From a virus (Duplodnaviria > Heunggongvirae > Uroviricota > Caudoviricetes): a DNA stretch of 14,765 nucleotides. Below, piece by piece: positions 1 through 14,765 of the stretch (within the stretch, counting starts at the first letter, position 1; each line of letters begins with the position of its first letter). A program made the position numbers and the translations under genes. The notes below the pieces were generated by a model. That model was not told the DNA's origin. It did not search any database and saw only the letters and a program-made list of their open reading frames with translations. The stretch is from IMG/VR virus record IMGVR_UViG_2547132272_000009; one strand, given 5' to 3'.

Positions 1-25
1 TAGTCTCCAGGATTCCCGGGGCGGT

Positions 26-367
26 TCAAAACATCGTTTCGCCGCGACCTTTATAGTTGCTCACCAGCGAATCAGGTGTTTTTCCGCTACCGACAAAGCG
101 CCCTTTTTCATCCCTTAAACGTCCATCGGTGGGCGCAGCCGGAACTGGCACAGGTGAAGATGGTTTCCTGGGAGCCTGATTGGCTTCTCCGCCCGCAGTT
201 GCCTGCTGCGTGCCACCTCCTGGACCTGTATTTGAAGGTATTTTAAGCGGCGTCCCTGCAGGGCCAATCATCAGCCCATTGCGATACTTTTCAAATATCG
301 CCTCAAGTCGCTTAAGGTGTTCTTCATTAACGTCCAGTGTCAGAACTGGCATCTGATTACCTGACAT
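26..367 (-). CDS. Hypothetical tail-module protein with a Pro/Gly/Ala-rich central region (113 aa)
   Basis: Same frame as the 209-aa ORF and starts 10 nt upstream of the end of the -1 ORF. Central segment GPAGTPLKIPSNTGPGGGTQQATAGGEANQAPRKPSSPVPVPAAP is low-complexity. TGA at 26-28. Confidence 0.45.
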   Translation of the reverse strand: MSGNQMPVLTLDVNEEHLKRLEAIFEKYRNGLMIGPAGTPLKIPSNTGPGGGTQQATAGGEANQAPRKPSSPVPVPAAPTDGRLRDEKGRFVGSGKTPDSLVSNYKGRGETMF

Positions 368-6832: not shown

Positions 6833-8147
6833 TGTTCAGGCTCCCTTGAGTGTTAATTTTTGCCAGACGACGCCCCGGAATTTTGAAAGCACTCAGCCAG
6901 ACGTTCGGATCGCCCTGATATTCAGTAATGCGACGTCCGGCTTCATCGTTGCGGATACGTTTATGCAGTTGCCCCTGCGTACTCATCATTTCTTTTTCGA
7001 TGGACTGACGAGCGGCACTGAAAATTGCGTCCTCAAGCACAGCCAGCGTTGCAGAATCCGCAATCGCGCGAATATTGACGTCCTTATGTGCCGGAGAGTG
7101 TTTCTGCATAGCGATTAGCGCACGCTTGCGGTAGTCCAGCACATTTTCACCAGAAAACGGTGCTGGCGCGTTTTTACCGCAGGCACTGAATGCGGAGTCG
7201 GCTTTTGCCTGCGCTTCTGCCAGGGCAGAATCATTGCGTTCTTTTTCTGCCTCCTCGTCGGCCTTACGCTGTTCTTCTGCTTCGGAATCAGCCTTTGCTT
7301 TCTCCTCAGCGTCTTTGGCTGCTGCCTCGTCAGCTTTGACTTTTTCTTCTGCCTCCTTTGCCGCAGCTTCATCAGCTTTACGCTGTTCCTCTGCGGCTTC
7401 ATCGGCTTTGGCCTTTTCTTCGGCCTCTTTTTTCGCCTGTTCTTCGGCATCCGCCCGCGCTTTGTCCCGCTGTTCCAGTGAGTCCATGCGCGTAACGACA
7501 CCATCGATTTTCTGATTAATGCCTTTCAGGGCATCGCTCACAACCCCCTGTAACAGGGCCTGGAGTTCTTCTTTTTCCATCTCAATTTCACCTGTATTTG
7601 TCACTTCAACCCCTGCGGGGATCCGGTCTTTATCCCACACGCCCAGCGAGCCGTGGGCTTTCGTCACCAGAGCGATGTGATCAACAAGGAAAGGAACGCC
7701 CTCGATTAAAAAATTGGTGTCACCTTCCTGTACTTCCACATTTCCTGATGTGCTGTTGAACACCACCGACGGACTTGTCGAAACATCCCCCTCAGTGATT
7801 TCTTCAACAATGCTCTGGAGGTAAACGCGGCACACCGCCCATACCTCGTCACCCCGGATATACGGCAGCATGACACTGCCGACGATCCGCGATTTAAAAT
7901 CCTCCTCCGTCAGAACTGCGTCGTCAGGATGGTTTGCGATAACCGGAAGGCCATTGCATCGCCTTAAAAACTCCTCACTCAGATAGAGCTTTGGATCACG
8001 CCATACGTGCTCTTTCAGCCCGGCGCGATAGGCGAGCCCGGTTCCGGTTATTCGCAAATTCACCAGCCACATGTTGGAGAATTTCACCGGGGACGGTACG
8101 GTTCCGTCCCTGATGCGTTCTGCCACTTCAAGCTCGGTTAAACTCAC
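6825..8147 (-). CDS. Putative scaffolding (possibly protease-scaffold) protein with an Ala/Glu/Lys-rich repeat domain
   Basis: Lies between the head-morphogenesis-like gene and the capsid gene. Central region is an imperfect KADEAA-type tandem repeat predicted to be highly helical, as in phage scaffolds. No protease catalytic residues identified by eye. Confidence 0.5.
   Translation of the reverse strand: MSLTELEVAERIRDGTVPSPVKFSNMWLVNLRITGTGLAYRAGLKEHVWRDPKLYLSEEFLRRCNGLPVIANHPDDAVLTEEDFKSRIVGSVMLPYIRGDEVWAVCRVYLQSIVEEITEGDVSTSPSVVFNSTSGNVEVQEGDTNFLIEGVPFLVDHIALVTKAHGSLGVWDKDRIPAGVEVTNTGEIEMEKEELQALLQGVVSDALKGINQKIDGVVTRMDSLEQRDKARADAEEQAKKEAEEKAKADEAAEEQRKADEAAAKEAEEKVKADEAAAKDAEEKAKADSEAEEQRKADEEAEKERNDSALAEAQAKADSAFSACGKNAPAPFSGENVLDYRKRALIAMQKHSPAHKDVNIRAIADSATLAVLEDAIFSAARQSIEKEMMSTQGQLHKRIRNDEAGRRITEYQGDPNVWLSAFKIPGRRLAKINTQGSLNNG
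7195..7460. repeat. Imperfect tandem repeats of about 30-42 bp encoding KADEAAxxEAEEK units
   Basis: Recurring motifs on the plus strand (gcctttgc/ggctttgg, ttcttctgc, tcagcttt). The repeat composition creates spurious long ORFs in the other frames (7115..7504 on minus, 7234..7515 on plus). Confidence 0.6.
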
Positions 8148-8961
8148 GTTTGCCTTTCTCCGTTAAAAATTCGTCGGGTAGTTTCTGAGGGGCGTAGATC
8201 GGCAGTGCATCGCAACTGCAATAAACCTCCTCCCCGGCAGCAGTGATTTCGTCATAAAAACCATATACGGGCTTAATCAGCCCCTGCTCCAGCGCCCACG
8301 AATCGCGGAGGAGATAAATTTTCTCGTCGCGCTCTTTGTGGTCCTGTCGGTATTTGTAGCCCGGACGCCGCCAGTTAGAATGCCAGCGCAGAGCAATCGC
8401 TCCACTCTGAACAGCCAGCAGATACTTAACGTTGCTTGCCAGCTTATGCCCCTGGTCAATTGCCACCCGGCGACTGATAAAATCCATATCCTTCACGGAC
8501 TTCTGAAACCCGGCCTTCACTTCCCGGCGATCAATTTCGCTCACCCCGTCAGGCGGAATGGACGTAACCCACCCCTGAAAACGCTGTATGGTTTTCTCGA
8601 TGGCCTGTTCGCGGTTGAGTTTTATCAGGTTGGCACTGGCGAAAATTCGCCTGTCGAGTTCCTTGCGAAACTCAGGTTTCAGTTTTTCAACAGTGATTTT
8701 TTTAGGGCCGTCAGGAGGCTGATCCCGTAATGCCCCGCCGTCGATGACAAGACGGCTGTAGATAGCGGTGAGATGTTTTCTGGCTACGGTATCATCAGGG
8801 GTTTCTCGCTGAGCGGCTACACGGAGTTTCCGGCACCATTCGAGCAATGATTTTTCGCTATCCCACCCGTGATTCACGTAGTAGTTAACGGCATCCGTCA
8901 GAACCTCATACAGCGTCCTGATCCGTTTCTTCTTCCTCACCGCCCGGCTGGAAATTGCCAT
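8128..8961 (-). CDS. Putative head morphogenesis / minor capsid protein (about 277 aa from the ATG at 8959-8961)
   Basis: Follows the portal-like gene, as MuF/gp7-type head morphogenesis genes typically do. The track ORF extends to 9129, but that extra N-terminus lies inside the portal gene in another frame. The ATG at 8961 has an AGGAGA Shine-Dalgarno 7 nt upstream. Function is by position only. Confidence 0.4.
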   Translation of the reverse strand: MAISSRAVRKKKRIRTLYEVLTDAVNYYVNHGWDSEKSLLEWCRKLRVAAQRETPDDTVARKHLTAIYSRLVIDGGALRDQPPDGPKKITVEKLKPEFRKELDRRIFASANLIKLNREQAIEKTIQRFQGWVTSIPPDGVSEIDRREVKAGFQKSVKDMDFISRRVAIDQGHKLASNVKYLLAVQSGAIALRWHSNWRRPGYKYRQDHKERDEKIYLLRDSWALEQGLIKPVYGFYDEITAAGEEVYCSCDALPIYAPQKLPDEFLTEKGKREFNRA

Positions 8962-10342
8962 CAGGCGTCTCCTGCTTCGGTGGTTCATAATTCGCCAGCG
9001 CGTCCACATCAATGATGAGTGGAGCTTCGCCATAGGTTTGCGTGGCATTAACAAGGCTTGCCAGCCATTCAGCGAGGGCGGCGCGGTTTTCAGGATCAAC
9101 CTGTGGCGACACGGCAGAGAAAAGTGCAATCGCCTGTTGAATCACTTTACTGTCGCTTTCCCGGCGTTTGTCCGGCGACTCCTCCACCAGCTCCTGCCAC
9201 GTCGCGGTAAATTCACGTCGCCACTGGTAAAACGTGGTTTTATAGTCGTCGGTTATGATGTCCGGGTAATCATTTTTCAGCGACTGATAAAATTCCTCGT
9301 TCCAGGCGATGTACTGCACCAGGCGTTCGAAATAATCCATCACAGGTTCAATCTGCTGGCGTACACCATCGATATACTGGCTGATGGCTTTCGAGTCCTC
9401 CTTACCTTCACCGAATCCGTTACTGAACGCTTCTTCCTTGATAATAATGGCCGGAACGTCACTCCCGGCGGCAATATCAGCAATGATGTTGTCGCGGGAT
9501 GTATTCAGCGCCCCGTCGATGTTTTGCAGGTTCAGTGAACTTACGTCTTCGTCTTTTCCAATACTCAACACGCCTTTATTTTTGGCGGCTTTCACGTTTT
9601 CCCTTTTACGCCCCGTGGCAGCAGCCATGATCCCGTCAATTTTCGAACCGTTCTGCACAACTTTAGCCACCAGTACGCCTGCCTTCTGGCTGACGAGATC
9701 ATTCGCCTCCATCGTATTGATATAGGATTTCAGGGAATAAAGAACTCGCTGAAACACGCTTCGCCCGGTGAATCCGAACGATGAACTCTGAAACTCCAGA
9801 TAAATCGGTGTGCCGTTGAAGATTTTCAGTGTGCGTGACGGATGCCAGTCTTTTCCGCCAATCTTCAGTTTTTTATTGGCTTCCTGGAAAAACGGGCTGT
9901 TGGGGTTCTGGTCAGTCACCATCGAACCGGAAGCGTTCAACGGATCCCACGCGTTGATATACACGTCATCTTCTGTCAGTCCGAACGTCGGAAGCGGTTC
10001 ACGACATGAAACACTGTCGGTGCCCACGCCGATCGCTGCGGCACCGTAGCAACGAGACAGAAAAAACAGATTTTTAATCTTCTCGTTCACCTTCATGCGC
10101 TCCCACACCTCCTGGAAACGCCGCACAACCCGCTCGTCAGGGTCTGTCTCCACGTTGTACTGGCGCGGCTTACACATCGCCATAAGTATGGGTTTTTCGA
10201 CAAGTTTCCCGCCCAGCGGATGGTACTGCCACAGCAGTTTACACAGTTCATAGCCAATGTCGGTTCCCGGCTGAATTTCTTCAGCCTCAAGAATGCGCAT
10301 CAGCGAAGAACTGAGATTTACAGAAATCTCGATCTCAGCCAT
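8906..10342 (-). CDS. Putative portal protein (478 aa)
   Basis: Called from position immediately downstream of terL, size, and a strongly acidic C-terminus (GGEEEETDQDAV). No catalytic motif expected or seen. Confidence 0.6.
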   Translation of the reverse strand: MAEIEISVNLSSSLMRILEAEEIQPGTDIGYELCKLLWQYHPLGGKLVEKPILMAMCKPRQYNVETDPDERVVRRFQEVWERMKVNEKIKNLFFLSRCYGAAAIGVGTDSVSCREPLPTFGLTEDDVYINAWDPLNASGSMVTDQNPNSPFFQEANKKLKIGGKDWHPSRTLKIFNGTPIYLEFQSSSFGFTGRSVFQRVLYSLKSYINTMEANDLVSQKAGVLVAKVVQNGSKIDGIMAAATGRKRENVKAAKNKGVLSIGKDEDVSSLNLQNIDGALNTSRDNIIADIAAGSDVPAIIIKEEAFSNGFGEGKEDSKAISQYIDGVRQQIEPVMDYFERLVQYIAWNEEFYQSLKNDYPDIITDDYKTTFYQWRREFTATWQELVEESPDKRRESDSKVIQQAIALFSAVSPQVDPENRAALAEWLASLVNATQTYGEAPLIIDVDALANYEPPKQETPDGNFQPGGEEEETDQDAV

Positions 10343-10361
10343 CAGAAAAAAATCCAGATTT

Positions 10362-11690
10362 TTACAATTCCGCGTAATTACCGTGCGCGATGATCAATCC
10401 ATAGGTGTAACAATCGAAAAGGTCATCAGCACGTTTATGCGCATCTTTGTCTGCCAGGTGGAACCCGGCGATTTGTTTTATGAGGTGGTTTGCGGTGGTG
10501 CGTTTGAATGAAACGGTCTTGTCGTAAGCCTCCCGGACGATTTTGCACATCCCCTGATAGTGGTAGCTGGATGCCATCACCGCCCGTTCGTCTTTGCCCT
10601 TGCTGGTTAGTGCCGATTTAATCGGCGTCATATCCCAGCCTTCGGTTTCCGCCTTCTGGTTGAGGATTGCCCCCATCGCGGCGTCTTCCATAAAAATTCC
10701 CTGGCTGCCCAGACGCGGACGGCATAATTTCGCGAGGCGCTCGAGGTTGTCATAAACGCCGGGGATATATTCAGGAAGCAATGACGCTTTAATTTGCGTC
10801 ACATCCCAGTCAATAATCGTCAGTTTTGGCTCGTCCGAATACGTTGACTCATAAGCGAAATACACCACGCCAGTACCATCATTTTCGGTCCCGCCTTTCA
10901 ACGCCGTATCCATCACTGCGAAAATCATGTCGCAGTACGGCGGCATCTCAATTGGTTGACCGTCCACCAGCAGCTTATCGACATCGAGTAACGCGTCTTT
11001 GGACCAGTCCACGAACTCGGCAAGATATTCCTGCTGCCAGACGCGCGGATCGGATTTCTTCTCCGTTTCCTCCAGTTCTTCTTTCGGAATATACGGATTC
11101 GATGAAGTTGGCGCATGGTGCATGACAAATCCCAGGGATTCATCGTGGCATATCGCGTAGAAAAAATTGCTCTCGTCGATACCGTTTGGTGTGGAAAATA
11201 CCCACGCACAGCCGCGGTAATCGACAAGCGTCGGGCGTATAGCGCGGGGCCAGATTTCCTCGAGCATTTCCGGCGATTTAGTGAATGCGGCCTCATCAAT
11301 CAGCACAGCGTGATATTTACGCCCACGCCCGGCCAGTTTGTTATTGTCCGTTACCCAAAAGTCGATGCGCCCCCCATTACGGAGAATGATGCGCTTTTCA
11401 TTTTTTGACTGACTGAGGATCAGCGGTTGCAGAACGGCGCTAATTTCATCCCAGATTTCCTGGTACTGGCGGTATTGCGCGGTAAAAATCCCCACCCTAC
11501 CCGCGATAAGTTGCCCGGTGGTAGGAATGGCAAATTTCCGCGTAGCGAAACTGGTAGCGATGTTCACCAGCATCACCGTTTTACCCCAGCGACGACCACA
11601 GCATACCGCGTGGAAGCGTTCCTCTATTGCCGCCGTCCATGCAGCTATTTGCCCCTCATGAGGTTTTGGGAGGTAGATTTCAATCGACAT
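10362..11690 (-). CDS. terL: Terminase large subunit (ATPase plus nuclease)
   Basis: Walker A-like CCGRRWGKT near the N-terminus, Walker B-like HAVLIDEAAF, and C-terminal acidic motifs typical of the RNase H-like terminase nuclease (AVMDTALKGG..DGTG, HLADKDAHKRADDLFD). Position between the small terminase and the portal-like gene. Confidence 0.9.
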   Translation of the reverse strand: MSIEIYLPKPHEGQIAAWTAAIEERFHAVCCGRRWGKTVMLVNIATSFATRKFAIPTTGQLIAGRVGIFTAQYRQYQEIWDEISAVLQPLILSQSKNEKRIILRNGGRIDFWVTDNNKLAGRGRKYHAVLIDEAAFTKSPEMLEEIWPRAIRPTLVDYRGCAWVFSTPNGIDESNFFYAICHDESLGFVMHHAPTSSNPYIPKEELEETEKKSDPRVWQQEYLAEFVDWSKDALLDVDKLLVDGQPIEMPPYCDMIFAVMDTALKGGTENDGTGVVYFAYESTYSDEPKLTIIDWDVTQIKASLLPEYIPGVYDNLERLAKLCRPRLGSQGIFMEDAAMGAILNQKAETEGWDMTPIKSALTSKGKDERAVMASSYHYQGMCKIVREAYDKTVSFKRTTANHLIKQIAGFHLADKDAHKRADDLFDCYTYGLIIAHGNYAEL

Positions 11691-12747
11691 TATCCACTCC
11701 CGGCATCGGCAGAGAGTTGTGGATAATTATTTCGTTATTCTCACCACCCACGCCTTTTTTGAGGTTTTCAATCTCAGTGCGCAGCTTTTCGTTGCGAAGC
11801 CTCAGTCCTTCAAGCTCCAGATCATTGCGACTGTCAGTTGCACCACCAGCAGAACTTCCTTTCGTCGCCATTATCAGCTTGATAAGTTCGCGCCGGGCGG
11901 CAGCCTTATCCTCCAGCAGGATCTCAACACCAAATTTCCCGAGCTTTGCCCCTGCATATAATTGCCGCGCATCCCCATCAAGCAGAGTGGTATCAGCCAT
12001 ATAAAGCTGCCCCGTTCCCTCACCGCAGCACTTCGGGCAGTCCGGATTGGGTATGGCGTTATCAACAAAGCCGAGGCCTCCATATTCCGGCTCGGGTTTG
12101 CCATCTCTGGAGGCCTGTGCCGCTGCCTTATCGAATTCTGCAATATCACGCCACTGGTAGAGGTGATTCTCGCCCCAGCAATAACGGCAGTTAACACGGC
12201 GAAATTGTGCCAACTGATTGGGGTCGGCCTGGACAATGGCCATCAACTGACTCACCAGTAAATCCAGGTCTGCGGTATAGCGTTTCTGGTACTGATTGCG
12301 AAACCAGGAAATAGCTCTGTAAACCTTAATATTTCTTAATAACTGACTTGCACCTGCGCTTGCCGCATTCCCCTCAGATTTATACCCAGCCAGGCGGTAT
12401 GCTTCGATGAGGTTTTTACCCTGAGCAACCAGCATCGCAAACTTTGCTTGCTGGTCTGAAATGCCGAATTCAGTGGGATCGAATGAAATTTCCTGGTCGT
12501 TTCCTGTAACAGGAGGGACAACAACCACGGACTTCTTTTTCTCAGTTTTTTGCGTTCGCTTTTGCGCACTTTTTTGCGCAGTTTTGCGCAATTCTGCCTG
12601 CGCATTTTTCGGAGGTTTTTTGATGTAACGACGGGCTGTTGCGTAATTCAGTCCCCTTGCTTCACACCATGCCACCGGAGATATACCGGAGCGGGTGTAT
12701 TCAGCAATATACTCCTGCTGCAACGCCCCCCAGTCCGGTCTGCTCAT
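11680..12747 (-). CDS. terS: Terminase small subunit (N-terminal HTH, terminase-small-like core, internal Cys4 cluster, C-terminal coiled coil)
   Basis: Directly upstream of and overlapping the large terminase by 11 nt. N-terminal HTH (ISPVAWCEARGLNYATARRYIKK). Segment DQQAKFAMLVAQGKNLIEAYRLAGYKSEGNAASAGASQLLRNIKVYRAISWFRNQ resembles small-terminase (Terminase_2-type) cores. CRYC ... CPKCC cysteines. 355 aa is long for a small terminase. Confidence 0.7.
   Translation of the reverse strand: MSRPDWGALQQEYIAEYTRSGISPVAWCEARGLNYATARRYIKKPPKNAQAELRKTAQKSAQKRTQKTEKKKSVVVVPPVTGNDQEISFDPTEFGISDQQAKFAMLVAQGKNLIEAYRLAGYKSEGNAASAGASQLLRNIKVYRAISWFRNQYQKRYTADLDLLVSQLMAIVQADPNQLAQFRRVNCRYCWGENHLYQWRDIAEFDKAAAQASRDGKPEPEYGGLGFVDNAIPNPDCPKCCGEGTGQLYMADTTLLDGDARQLYAGAKLGKFGVEILLEDKAAARRELIKLIMATKGSSAGGATDSRNDLELEGLRLRNEKLRTEIENLKKGVGGENNEIIIHNSLPMPGVDNVD
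12546..12609. repeat. Phased direct repeats of TTTTGCGCA (3 full copies plus 1 partial) inside terS
   Basis: TTTTGCGCA at 12560-12568, 12572-12580 and 12582-12590, with CTGCGCATTTTT at 12598-12609. Spacing of 10-12 bp is roughly one helical turn. Encodes the AQK-repeat basic linker of TerS. Confidence 0.6.
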
Positions 12748-12750
12748 CAG

Positions 12751-13002
12751 TTAGTCCTGATTTTTATCCACCCTGAGTAGTTCGCGCAGGGCAAAGGCAT
12801 CCCCTTTTCTGGCAAGCTTAAACAATGCCGCCCGTAGCTCGGCTTCACCTTTCGCTCTGCCCTTACGGATGGACGCATAAAAATTTGTCATTGCTTCCCG
12901 ATTTTCTTTCAGTCGGTTCAGATCAACATCCAGAACGTCAGCTATTTGTTGTGCAGTCATCCGGCACGCTGCCAGAGACTCGACTTTCGAATACGGAATC
13001 AT
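12751..13002 (-). CDS. Small DNA-binding (HTH-like) protein, 83 aa
   Basis: ORF immediately upstream of terS. Segment MTAQQIADVLDVDLNRL looks like a helix-turn-helix. GGGGGTGA Shine-Dalgarno-like sequence 5-10 nt upstream of the ATG at 13000-13002. Overlaps the 3' end of the upstream gene. Confidence 0.5.
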   Translation of the reverse strand: MIPYSKVESLAACRMTAQQIADVLDVDLNRLKENREAMTNFYASIRKGRAKGEAELRAALFKLARKGDAFALRELLRVDKNQD

Positions 13003-13870
13003 TTGTCACCCCCATTGATATGCAGGGTGTCTTCTTCCTGTATTTTTCGTGAAGGATTTTTACTGCAGCATTGTTCCAGGTGACCTGATGGTGAATGCGT
13101 TTATGGCTGGCCCCCATCAGTGCGATTTTCACGCACGACGGCGCATACATGACAGAGTAAAAACTTTTAACGTAGGTACCGGAATCCAGATACAGTTCGG
13201 TCATGCCACCGCTGTTTTTTTGCGTCTGCTTCTGGCCCAACTGGACGGCGCCAACCGTCATAAACAGTTCACCACACCGTCCGAGGTTCGTGTATGTGTT
13301 CACGTCCTCATTAATGCGCCCCATGAATGAGAACGGTCGGTCAACCGAACAGATAAAGCTGTTCATTGCCTTGCGTTTCACCCACGAAGCATGGCCGCCA
13401 TTGTCACCAAGAAAATCCCCGCCCTGCGACATAGCGATGGAAAGCGCAGGAATTGATTCGTAATACGCCAGCATTTCAGAAAGGATCGCATCAAGTTTCC
13501 TTATCGGAAAATAGGCCTGGTCATAGTTGCGATCCACCCGAAACTGAAACTCGTGATAATCATCATCGAGCTGAATGAAGTATTTACACCCGACCTTTTT
13601 TGCCAGGTCAAAACAGGCATTACGGGCGTAAAAAATTGAGCGACGATCACCGAAATTATCGGCTTCGTCAAAACGACTGGCGATATCGGCTTTGGAAAAC
13701 ACCAGCACCTGTTCACCAAATTCTGCTATGTACTGATGCCGGGTTTTATCTTCATCATCAACAACGATAAAAACTTTCCCGGTATAGCCAGCACGACGCA
13801 ACGTCCGGTAAGTCAGAACTTTGTCCGGACGCCCGTGAGTCAGAATAAAGGCGCAAAAATCATCACGCAT
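12938..13870 (-). CDS. Putative GT-A fold glycosyltransferase-like protein (about 310 aa from the ATG at 13868-13870; the track's longer ORF starts at 13891)
   Basis: N-terminal pattern FCAFILTHGRPDK ... KVFIVVDDEDKT and a hydrophobic strand followed by DxD (YFIQLDDDYHEF) resemble the GT2/GT-A nucleotide-sugar-binding region. No obvious transmembrane segment. The ATG at 13870 is preceded by GGAGGAGGAGG and overlaps the end of the upstream reading frame (ATGCGTGATG), suggesting translational coupling. Fold assignment is by eye only. Confidence 0.5.
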   Translation of the reverse strand: MRDDFCAFILTHGRPDKVLTYRTLRRAGYTGKVFIVVDDEDKTRHQYIAEFGEQVLVFSKADIASRFDEADNFGDRRSIFYARNACFDLAKKVGCKYFIQLDDDYHEFQFRVDRNYDQAYFPIRKLDAILSEMLAYYESIPALSIAMSQGGDFLGDNGGHASWVKRKAMNSFICSVDRPFSFMGRINEDVNTYTNLGRCGELFMTVGAVQLGQKQTQKNSGGMTELYLDSGTYVKSFYSVMYAPSCVKIALMGASHKRIHHQVTWNNAAVKILHEKYRKKTPCISMGVTNDSVFESRVSGSVPDDCTTNS

Positions 13871-14126
13871 ATTCCTCCTCCTCCCCGCCATGCATGATCT
13901 CCACCATGCGCTGCGTCATCCGGACAAATCCATTTTCAATAGCCTGCTGATAATCAATGATCACCAGCGCCGACTCCTCAAAAAGGCTCTGAATTTCAGC
14001 GGGGGCGTGAGCGTAATAGTCCGCAATTCTGCTGAAATTAAACACCGTGTGACGTTCTGCCGCGCACAGGAGGAATTTTTCGATATCAGGCTCAAGGGAC
14101 GCCGAACGTATCCGGCTGACCAGCTC
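13863..14126 (-). pseudogene. In-frame continuation of the ParB-like gene beyond the TAG (88 codons, ends GGEEEEYA, TGA at 13863-13865)
   Basis: Same frame as 14127..14657 (14657-14045=612, divisible by 3). Hand translation of 14126..14046 gives ELVSRIRSASLEPDIEKFLLCAAERHTV with no stop, then runs into the track ORF 13863..14045. That ORF only has a GTG start and no Shine-Dalgarno, so it is unlikely to be an independent gene. Whether this is a nonsense mutation, suppressed amber or readthrough cannot be told from sequence. Confidence 0.45.
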
Positions 14127-14657
14127 CTAAGTTTTCGTATCGTCGTACAGTTCACTGATATCCGGTTTATCGCCTGACGGCTCATAAACAGGCGTATCAA
14201 TTTTCGTCGTGTACGGTTCCTCCTCATTATTTCCTGTACCGGGCAAAACATCCGTCAACAGTTCATCAATTTCTGTCGGGCTAAATCCTGTCAGGGAGAT
14301 ATCAAAATCAGCATTGATTAGGTCCGACAGCTCCATCCGTAACAGATCTTCATCCCAGCCAGCGTTGAGCGGCAGGCGATTATCTGCCAGGCGGTACGCC
14401 TTTTTCTGATCATCCGTCAGGCCAGACAGAACAATGACCGGAACAGAATCCATTTTGAGCACCTCAGCCGCCATCACGCGACCGTGACCAGCAATAATTT
14501 CGCCCTTTTCGTCAATCAGCACCGGATTGGTCCAGCCGAATTGCTTAATGCTTTCTACCAGTTGTGCCACCTGCTCAGGGCTGTGTGTCCTGGCGTTGTG
14601 CGCATACGGAGACAGTTTTTGTAACGGGCGATAGACGATCTTCAATTTCTCGCTCAT
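14127..14657 (-). CDS. ParB-like nuclease domain protein, N-terminal part (176 aa), ends at an in-frame TAG
   Basis: N-terminal region KIVYRPLQKLSPYAHNARTHSPEQVAQLVESIKQFGWTNPVLIDEKGEIIAGHGRVMAAEVLKMDSVPVIVL matches the ParB/sulfiredoxin-type nuclease domain pattern (NxR...SI...G...P.....G....I.GHGR). ATG at 14655-14657. Stop is TAG at 14127-14129, the only in-frame TAG terminating any predicted gene in the window. Confidence 0.8.
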   Translation of the reverse strand: MSEKLKIVYRPLQKLSPYAHNARTHSPEQVAQLVESIKQFGWTNPVLIDEKGEIIAGHGRVMAAEVLKMDSVPVIVLSGLTDDQKKAYRLADNRLPLNAGWDEDLLRMELSDLINADFDISLTGFSPTEIDELLTDVLPGTGNNEEEPYTTKIDTPVYEPSGDKPDISELYDDTKT

Positions 14658-14765
14658 ACAGCCTCGCTTGATGAATAAAAAAGCTCACTAACAGCCAGTG
14701 CGCTGGGTGCGCGGCGGGTGCTGTTGGTGAGCCTGGCATTATCGCAGCCCCTCACTGAAGGGCTG

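Follow-up and report, generated by a model that had tools for sequence, protein, structure and literature searches.

Among the described systems close to the locus considered here are the ParB activators of 5mYOX-associated phages, which are built of an N-terminal domain of the ParB nucleotide-binding type, a short helical segment, a disordered linker of ~35-50 aa and a C-terminal domain and contain no recognisable DNA-binding HTH (O'Toole et al., PNAS 2026, PMC13229309). In these activators the C-terminal domain is needed for activity, and ParB176 from which this domain was deleted retains 2% activity (PMC13229309). A truncated member of the ParB-like family that is the subject of this work is familiar from E. 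coli K-12, where it is known as ynaK of the Rac remnant; ynaK-type alleles of E. coli are cut at residues ~139-170 by deletion or rearrangement junctions. Orthologues of the gene described below are labelled in RefSeq as ynaK, ParB/Srx family N-terminal domain-containing protein. The same database also labels intact orthologues as partial ynaK pseudogenes, which is an annotation artefact. The sequence analysed here, termed the window, is a stretch of 14,765 nt from a tailed-phage record (Caudoviricetes; IMG/VR IMGVR_UViG_2547132272_000009), in which a gene of this family is interrupted by one in-frame TAG codon. It is very probable that the interruption is a single recent CAG (Gln177) to TAG mutation in a 264-codon prophage gene, i.e., a loss-of-function decay allele.

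The ParB-like gene is placed on the minus strand and starts with ATG at 14657-14655, upstream of which GAGG is found; its frame comprises 176 sense codons, TAG at 14129-14127, 87 sense codons and TGA at 13865-13863 (Table 1). An earlier, sequence-only reading of this DNA had located the interrupting TAG exactly. It had also described 88 more codons after the TAG, and the frame is open up to the TGA as claimed, with the correction that there are 87 sense codons and that 88 includes the TGA. The protein of roughly 264 aa that it had predicted across the TAG was confirmed, since the computed full-length product has 264 aa (29.8 kDa; 176 aa and 19.6 kDa in the truncated form) and an intact Gln177 version of it exists. 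The open stretch 3' of the TAG exceeds chance, inter-stop runs of at least 87 codons amounting to only 1.3% in shuffled window sequence. Residues 1-251 match positions 3-217 of the 217-position profile phrog_620 (E = 2.7e-89), and with the 87-aa tail as the only query the C-terminal end of the same profile is still matched (positions 155-217 of 217, E = 1.3e-13). The label of PHROG 620 is phage 'ParB-like partition protein'.

Table 1. Features of the interrupted ParB-like locus and its surroundings (positions in the window).
Feature	Position	Strand	Remarks
End of IS3-family (IS1203/IS629-like) element	1..28		E. coli prophage homology begins at 29
TAGT-family glycosyltransferase gene, 310 aa	12938..13870	-	Pfam PF20691 TAGT, E = 9.5e-36; phrog_842
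Putative ancestral single ParB-like gene, 264 codons	13863..14657	-	Exact Gln177 protein known; end-to-end phrog_620 match
Stranded 3' part of ParB-like gene, 87 sense codons + TGA	13863..14126	-	Conserved C-terminal helical domain
Amber codon TAG (codon 177)	14127..14129	-	CAG (Gln) in relatives; coding-strand C to T at 14129
Truncated ParB-like ORF, 176 codons + TAG	14127..14657	-	Encodes ParB/Srx N-terminal domain, helical segment, acidic linker

The intact protein would consist of three parts: a ParB/Srx nucleotide-binding-type N-domain (~1-135), a disordered acidic linker (~136-170) and a conserved helical C-terminal domain (~171-264). Pfam ParB_N (PF02195) is matched at residues 23-88 with E = 1.4e-6 (28.7 bits vs. 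the gathering cut-off of 26.3), and a profile of 36 homologues matches chains of Noc, ParB and Spo0J with E = 2e-5 to 2e-3. The GxxR motif is represented by AGHGR at residues 56-60, in which A56, G57, G59 and R60 are invariant among the 36 homologues and H58 is nearly so. When an AlphaFold2 monomer model of an orthologue (P0017) was compared with the PDB by Foldseek, the top matches were 7nfu (Noc), 6ryk (PadC), 7bnr and 6sdk (both ParB) and 8qa9 (KorB), with probability 1.00 and E = 5e-6 to 5e-4. Profiles and model together assign the N-terminal part, with its ParB/Srx fold, to the ParB/Srx N-terminal domain superfamily. The N-domain is modelled with moderate to high confidence: means of pLDDT over 10-residue blocks are 67-91, with dips to ~50 near residues 95-100 and 131-140, and pLDDT is 30-42 over residues 141-170 of the linker, while helices extend from residue 166 (166-169, then 172-184) to 255. 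The C-terminal domain was modelled with low to medium confidence, and the model serves to define domain boundaries only, not the fold.

What is removed by the stop is the best conserved part of the ParB-like family. Comparison of the window protein with ORF1 of Lactobacillus phage c5, Orf1 of Nocardia phage NTR1 and a protein of Vibrio phage pv27 gave 27 invariant columns, all of which fall in residues 149-243, 20 of them after the stop and 7 in residues 149-170. Full-length homologues of 257-292 aa are found across Enterobacterales and also in phages c5 and NTR1; in Vibrio phage pv27 the conserved C-terminal region is encoded alone, directly before a TAGT gene. When the C-terminal domain served as the query in IMG/VR, only near-identical E. 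coli prophages were returned; the phage c5 and pv27 sequences were then used as queries for diversity. Among the resulting 157 viral loci, grouped at ~80% identity into 28 clusters, the C-terminal domain is fused to a ParB N-domain in 25/28, and in 27/28 the TAGT ORF closest to the gene on the same strand overlaps or adjoins its end (-89 to +27 nt); in the one remaining cluster the TAGT ORF starts 821 nt downstream. In the window the TAGT gene is intact relative to the orthologue in E. coli; it begins with an ATG (13870-13868) that overlaps the TGA of the ParB-like gene as ATGCGTGA, and its Shine-Dalgarno sequence, GGAGGAGGAGGAA, is located inside the 3' end of the ParB-like gene. Literature searches on TAGT, and on 'TET-associated glycosyltransferase' with ParB, returned nothing specific to a ParB-TAGT module. 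The ParB-like and TAGT pair directly before terminase genes can be regarded as a little-studied two-gene module, conserved in prophages of Escherichia as well as in phages of Lactobacillus and Nocardia.

The presumed ancestor of the amber allele is common. In the protein collection, the exact 264-aa protein with Gln177, identical at the other 263 residues (P0016), is present on 196 contigs, and its source, wherever named, is E. coli; the 176-aa form is confined to 4 contigs, each ~14.9 kb long. An exact match of the 176-aa protein, WP_001291111.1, comes from Escherichia sp. TW09231 (NCBI), a clade III strain isolated from the environment, at a freshwater beach in Michigan (PMC7716201). The copy of E. 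coli TUM1881 differs from the window gene at 2 of 795 nt, one difference being synonymous at codon 125 and the other the CAG to TAG change at codon 177. Three relatives (L001-L003) have CAG within ...DDTKTQELVSRIR... and a frame open for 263-264 codons, and three E. coli copies (L001, L002 and L009) show no difference from the window in the 261 nt 3' of the TAG. Relatives that are 96-99% identical use CAG at codon 177, and Gln is encoded there in 80/80 IMG/VR near relatives checked. The sequence-only reading had favoured one interrupted gene over two and had proposed alignment of homologues as a check: the homologues proved to be collinear across the TAG, their frame continues through the site, and it is Gln (CAG) that aligns there.

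The frequency of the allele was searched with a 55-mer, each 28-mer of which spans the variable base, in 5426 complete E. coli genomes, in which the TAG context occurs 0 times and the CAG context in 923. Metagenome and IMG/VR contigs with exact flanks carry CAG in 25/26 cases and TAG in 1/26, the lone TAG contig being Ga0209547_100124, which matches the window over its full length with 100% identity; an exact 26-mer with N at the variable base had no match in species-representative genomes. The amber allele is private to one lineage, a prophage of Escherichia cryptic clade III type. With intact orthologues and a sense codon one step away, it can probably be counted among simple nonsense pseudogene alleles, and further adaptation around the amber codon appears to be absent, as the stop is not conserved and no compensating start site is present. 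Between the tail and the E. coli copies there are 0 synonymous and 0-1 non-synonymous differences; with so few, dN/dS is uninformative as a coding test of the tail, and its coding status was judged instead by protein conservation in distant homologues.

In the proposed course of events, one C-to-T transition would have turned codon 177 from Gln to amber, and translation would end at the start of the C-terminal domain, so that the N-domain and linker would be retained in the 19.6-kDa product; the mutation would be too young for any decay downstream. The truncated allele may well be without function, by analogy with the ParB176 deletion, the analogy being drawn from a different ParB subfamily. 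The classical CAG to TAG amber hot spot results from deamination of 5-methylcytosine in CCAGG. Such a Dcm hot spot was considered as the cause of the mutation and rejected, the ancestral context being TCAGG (ACTCAGGAG), which is not a Dcm site.

The prophage late region is of the Rac-SA53-like lambdoid type, with the ParB-like gene adjoining the terminase genes, and 16 other genes compared align over their full length with no internal stops. At the other end of the window the IS element cuts an SLT-domain tail gene, whose orthologue has 693 aa, after codon 113 and provides its TGA (28-26); the parent contig runs on into the IS transposase gene. Since this IS1203-like insertion also sits in a tail gene, the prophage is read as decaying, and since the late region is otherwise intact, this reading rests on two lesions only. 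Because the insertion and the amber codon share the same Rac-SA53-like prophage, we infer that the allele reflects neutral decay, the prophage being defective. Of the explanations put forward by the sequence-only reading, the one that fits all data is that of a decaying prophage in which a nonsense mutation has recently occurred, the data being Gln in homologues, the exact Gln177 protein, the unchanged 261 nt and the IS insertion. As a lesion it is of a textbook kind, a prophage gene being interrupted by a nonsense mutation of a single base. For annotation it would follow that the locus is one pseudogene, neither two genes nor a case of recoding. The allele also offers a natural null or truncation, in which the ParB N-domain is split from the glycosyltransferase-associated C-terminal domain.

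Could the TAG be an error of sequencing or assembly, hiding an intact gene with C on the coding strand at 14129? Only one base separates the allele from the common intact one, and the allele is known from one sequence lineage only. However, the same 176-aa product is encoded on four contigs from four sources (NCBI TW09231, JGI 3300026224, ENA ERZ27241745 and Logan), which may re-assemble one data set; two of the contigs, which differ in length (14,987 and 14,956 nt), both match the window over 6.6 kb with 100% identity, and the amber site lies outside any homopolymer (ACTTAGGAG). An error, which had been listed among the possible explanations, is distinctly unlikely given these four contigs.

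Suppression of the stop has to be weighed as well. Suppressors of the supE type and near-cognate misreading of UAG both insert Gln, by which the wild-type sequence would be restored, while basal readthrough is low in wild-type E. coli. It is very unlikely that the stop is read through via a suppressor tRNA or near-cognate tRNA-Gln and that the allele is partly functional. The ancestral Gln and the still perfect downstream frame would agree with it, but a perfect frame is equally predicted by a very young mutation, the window contains no tRNA gene, and the stop is absent from the relatives (0/923 genomes, 0/80 near relatives and 0/25 exact-context contigs), so there is no sign of selection. Programmed readthrough, which had also been suggested, is refuted because no relative retains the stop. 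Very doubtful, too, is a selected separation-of-function allele, in which a stable fragment of ParB containing the N-domain only, with traces of the wild-type protein made by near-cognate tRNA-Gln readthrough, would lower the activity of a terminase-linked DNA-glycosylation module of ParB and TAGT, in which the glycosyltransferase is recruited by the C-terminal domain. An amber allele propagated in the laboratory on a suppressor host had been proposed earlier and is unlikely, as the exact protein is named for the environmental isolate TW09231 and is also present in metagenome assemblies.

The TAG could in principle be a sense codon. TAG-to-Gln recoding (genetic code 15) has been described for late genes of some gut phages, and the window gene resembles those of code-15 phages in that its in-frame TAG is placed where relatives have Gln, the amino acid of known TAG-recoded phages, and in that it belongs to the late region, beside the terminase genes. 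Unlike in such phages, there is exactly one in-frame TAG in ~5050 codons (19 ORFs), no suppressor tRNA is found in the window, the stop is not conserved in relatives, of which those 96-99% identical have CAG at the site, the 16 other compared genes align full length without stops, and Escherichia hosts use the standard code, so that recoding has a negligible probability. Stop-codon usage, which was tried as evidence of TAG avoidance, was rejected as not significant: the 18 other window genes (long minus-strand ORFs) end with TGA in 11 cases and TAA in 7, as the sequence-only reading had noticed for those it checked, TAG makes up roughly 8% of E. coli stops, and on this assumption the probability of 0/18 TAG stops is ~0.22, in line with its caution that the absence of TAG is not statistically strong. 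That the N-terminal ORF has its natural end at the TAG and that the tail forms a small gene of its own has next to no probability. In favour of it, one gene caller annotated a 60-aa ORF with a GTG start in this tail on the JGI contig. Against it, single ORFs of 243-305 aa span the TAG point among homologues, those of Lactobacillus and Nocardia phages as well as those of Enterobacterales, and this GTG (at 14045), the only start codon of the downstream part, as had been observed before, has no Shine-Dalgarno sequence, with nothing purine-rich upstream of it (gcagaacgtcacacgGTG), and lies inside the conserved domain, after invariant F195 to H203. Reinitiation after the TAG was likewise considered and rejected: an AGGAG core is present in TAGGAG, but the sequence that follows, CTGGTCAGCCGGATACG, contains no ATG, GTG or TTG in range.

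How, then, does the nonsense allele of the window relate to known systems? As with the ynaK-type alleles of E. coli, the setting is a lambdoid late region of Rac-SA53-like type and inactivation would be due to an ordinary mutation; the window allele differs from them in being a single base substitution, with the downstream part untouched, found in one lineage only. With the CTPase clamps ParB, Noc and KorB the window protein has in common the N-terminal fold and the GxxR motif; unlike in these proteins, Pfam finds only ParB_N and no HTH domain match. No ParA is present among the neighbours (lysis genes, TAGT and terminase genes), and the features of a canonical partition ParB of the ParABS type, an HTH and a ParA partner, thus seem to be lacking. 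The 5mYOX-associated ParB activators are alike in layout, as judged against their published description, and both they and the window gene are placed in neighbourhoods of the phage DNA-modification type, with glycosyltransferases and terminases (PMC13229309). Unlike the 5mYOX-associated systems, the window contains no TET/JBP dioxygenase detectable with Pfam and phrog profiles, and of the families seen at least twice among 150 neighbour ORFs of 28 diverged modules none is TET_JBP, i.e., it occurs in at most 1/150. Where the 5mYOX systems have a TET/JBP dioxygenase, the invariant partner of the window module is the TAGT glycosyltransferase.

All gene features described here lie on the minus strand. 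When the ParB-like frame was re-read on this strand, the coordinates of the sequence-only reading proved exact; its count of 88 further codons after the TAG holds for the open frame, in which 87 are sense codons and the 88th is the terminal TGA. The predicted products are 264 aa (29.8 kDa, computed) for the full protein and 176 aa (19.6 kDa) for the truncated one. The open tail is evidently not a product of chance, since inter-stop runs of at least 87 codons make up only 1.3% of those in the shuffled window sequence and the 87-aa tail, taken by itself, hits the C-terminal end of the phage protein family phrog_620 (E = 1.3e-13). The joined sequence matches this family end to end (E = 2.7e-89). 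As had been noticed earlier, the tail lacks a proper start, its sole start codon being a GTG at 14045 without Shine-Dalgarno, and the 18 other ORFs (long minus-strand ORFs taken as genes of the window) end in TGA (11) or TAA (7). The caution that this absence of TAG is statistically weak was justified (P ~0.22, given that TAG accounts for ~8% of stop codons).

Features of the ParB-like gene, its surroundings and its relatives
Feature	Position	Strand	Basis or remark
ParB-like ORF, start codon ATG	14657	minus	GAGG upstream
Truncated ORF, 176 sense codons, then TAG	TAG 14129-14127	minus	sequence reading
Frame beyond TAG, 87 sense codons, then TGA	TGA 13865-13863	minus	sequence reading
TAGT-family glycosyltransferase gene	12938-13870	minus	PF20691 E = 9.5e-36; phrog_842
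(GAG)n run, GAGGAGGAGGAA	13874-13885	minus	codes for E3/E4 stretch at ParB C-terminus and serves as TAGT Shine-Dalgarno
ParB-TAGT module (window; loci of phages c5, NTR1, pv27; surveyed loci)	12938-14657; L006:90-1713; L007:3-1720; L008:1947-3376; L116-L272		
Portal gene, 478 aa	8906-10342	minus	Pfam Phage_portal_3
SLT-domain/transglycosylase tail gene, interrupted after codon 113	26-367	minus	TGA (28-26) comes from IS element
End of IS3-family (IS1203/IS629-like) element, TGAACCGCCCCGGGAATCCTGGAGACTA...	1-28; L010:14863-14956		parent contig runs into transposase gene
E. coli orthologues of window 13863-14657 labelled partial ynaK	L001:3164-3958; L002:3164-3958; L009:13845-14639		
Linker-truncated E. 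coli alleles (proteins)	P0004, P0005, P0009, P0015, P0125, P0131, P0137		

The TAG is best read as a nonsense mutation (Gln177 to amber) that is both private and very young, because relatives carry CAG, a nearly identical E. coli gene exists and the TAG is absent from the genomes searched. The frame of relatives is open over 262-264 codons, and they proved collinear across the TAG, with Gln at that codon; Gln was found in 80/80 near relatives from IMG/VR. The exact 264-aa protein, with Q177 and the other 263 residues identical, occurs in 196 contigs of the protein collection (E. coli where the source names one), the exact 176-aa protein in four only. The main claim of the sequence-only reading, one ParB-like gene interrupted by a single amber codon, was borne out. 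The gene of E. coli TUM1881 differs at two of 795 nt: a synonymous change in codon 125 (14283) and C to T in codon 177 (14129). A 55-mer of the TAG allele, designed so that each 28-base word covers the T, had no match among 5426 complete E. coli genomes, whereas its C version matched in 923 of them. The exact 26-nt context was found in metagenome and IMG/VR contigs 25 times with CAG and once with TAG, the latter in the window's own contig.

A sequencing error at the amber codon is unlikely, as the allele recurs in contigs of four sources with different contig ends. Suppression or readthrough of the stop would still yield full-length protein; against it stand the lack of a tRNA gene within the window and the lack of conservation of the stop in relatives. 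Recoding of TAG to Gln was rejected (one in-frame TAG in ~5050 codons, CAG in 96-99% identical relatives), as were two separate genes, by homologue collinearity, and a Dcm-site hot spot, the ancestral context being TCAGG and not CCAGG. The 261 nt 3' of the stop are identical to three E. coli copies. Synonymous divergence from the E. coli copies L002, L003 and L009 is ~0.15-0.17 per site over the first 176 codons and 0 over the last 87, which suggests a mosaic (recombination) boundary inside or near the gene.

The window represents the late region of a lambdoid prophage of the Rac-SA53-like kind; read along the minus strand, the ParB-like gene comes first, followed by TAGT glycosyltransferase, a small ORF, the small and large terminase subunits, portal, and head and tail genes. 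Prophages 96-97% identical to the window reside in many E. coli genomes. JGI metagenome contig Ga0209547_100124 (14,956 nt) holds the entire window at 100% identity, and ENA contig ERZ27241745:k141_9197 (14,987 nt) is identical over the compared ParB-side 6.6 kb (8127-14765). The truncated 176-aa protein is recorded as WP_001291111.1 under the name of Escherichia sp. TW09231; this strain, of cryptic clade III, was isolated at a freshwater beach in Michigan (PMC7716201). RefSeq relatives of the portal gene are named 'anti-CBASS protein Acb1 family protein', which is either a questionable label or a fusion. The prophage is probably defective, as an IS element cuts the tail gene, which has 693 aa uninterrupted in E. 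coli Z1324SEC0014; the 16 genes between the insertion and the amber codon are intact. An amber mutation of recent origin in a defective prophage is an ordinary event of known kind.

Inactivation of the ParB-like gene is common in resident prophages, here by base substitution, since many other E. coli alleles are cut in the linker (after residues ~139-170) and joined to unrelated sequence; such alleles point to recurrent deletion or rearrangement junctions in prophage remnants. Of more interest than the mutation itself is the RefSeq/PGAP annotation of intact orthologues: in many E. coli genomes the 262-264-codon ORF is labelled as an 86-codon pseudogene, 'ynaK ... incomplete; missing C-terminus', and the rest is left unannotated though the frame is open to its end. 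This label is probably an artefact of matching truncated K-12 YnaK.

The stop falls where the C-terminal domain begins. Pfam places the ParB N-terminal domain at residues 23-88. When AlphaFold2 was run on orthologue P0017 (95% identical), the N-domain to ~residue 135 was of moderate to high confidence (pLDDT 67-91 as means of 10-residue blocks, falling to ~50 around residues 95-100 and 131-140), the acidic linker was disordered (pLDDT <50 over 136-170, block means 30-42 over 141-170), and the C-terminal region was helical from ~166-172 to 255, with low to medium confidence. The window protein was aligned with Lactobacillus phage c5 ORF1 (257 aa), Nocardia phage NTR1 Orf1 (281 aa) and a 139-aa protein of Vibrio phage pv27. 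The C-terminal domain is the family's best conserved part, since all 27 invariant columns fall within residues 149-243, 20 of them after the stop; at the stop position itself the residue is not fixed (Q, N, E, D).

This domain is closely associated with the TAGT gene, whose ATG shares bases with the ParB stop codon (ATGCGTGA) and whose Shine-Dalgarno (GGAGGAGGAGGAA) is located within the ParB 3' end. The (GAG)n run there differs in length among relatives (...GGEEEYA or ...GGEEEEYA). In phages c5 and NTR1 ParB and then TAGT stand just ahead of a terminase gene, and in pv27 a C-terminal-domain-only protein directly precedes TAGT. Among 157 viral loci encoding the domain, grouped into 28 clusters at ~80% identity, 25 clusters carry it as a fusion with the ParB N-domain (ORFs mostly 243-305 aa). 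In 27 of the 28, the closest TAGT ORF on the same strand overlaps or abuts the end of the ORF that encodes the domain (-89 to +27 nt, counted from the earliest possible TAGT start); in the remaining cluster it begins 821 nt downstream. Among the 150 neighbour ORFs, genes for the terminase large subunit are the commonest, with at least 21 ORFs matching a terminase-large N-terminal family. Since the module usually lies directly upstream of terminase genes, both in these diverged viral-contig clusters and in c5 and NTR1, and given the TAGT family name, a role in DNA glycosylation tied to packaging is suggested. No TET/JBP dioxygenase, which would supply a hydroxymethyl base as substrate for the glycosyltransferase, is among the families found in at least two of the 150 neighbour ORFs (~4 kb around the modules). 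This conserved ParB-TAGT-terminase module without dioxygenase likewise outweighs the mutation in interest.

With the mutation, translation ends before the conserved C-terminal domain, giving a product without the part that co-varies with TAGT. TAGT translation probably continues, owing to its own strong Shine-Dalgarno, and Rho-dependent polarity over the 264 untranslated nt would be damped if late transcription is antiterminated, as it is in lambda. The amber allele is predicted to be loss-of-function, given the missing domain and the analogy with ParB176. By sequence and structure comparison the N-domain is similar to Noc, ParB, PadC and KorB. Of the phage ParBs with a comparable architecture, only the 5mYOX-associated ones have been studied; deletion of the C-terminal domain left one of them, ParB176, with 2% activity (PMC13229309).
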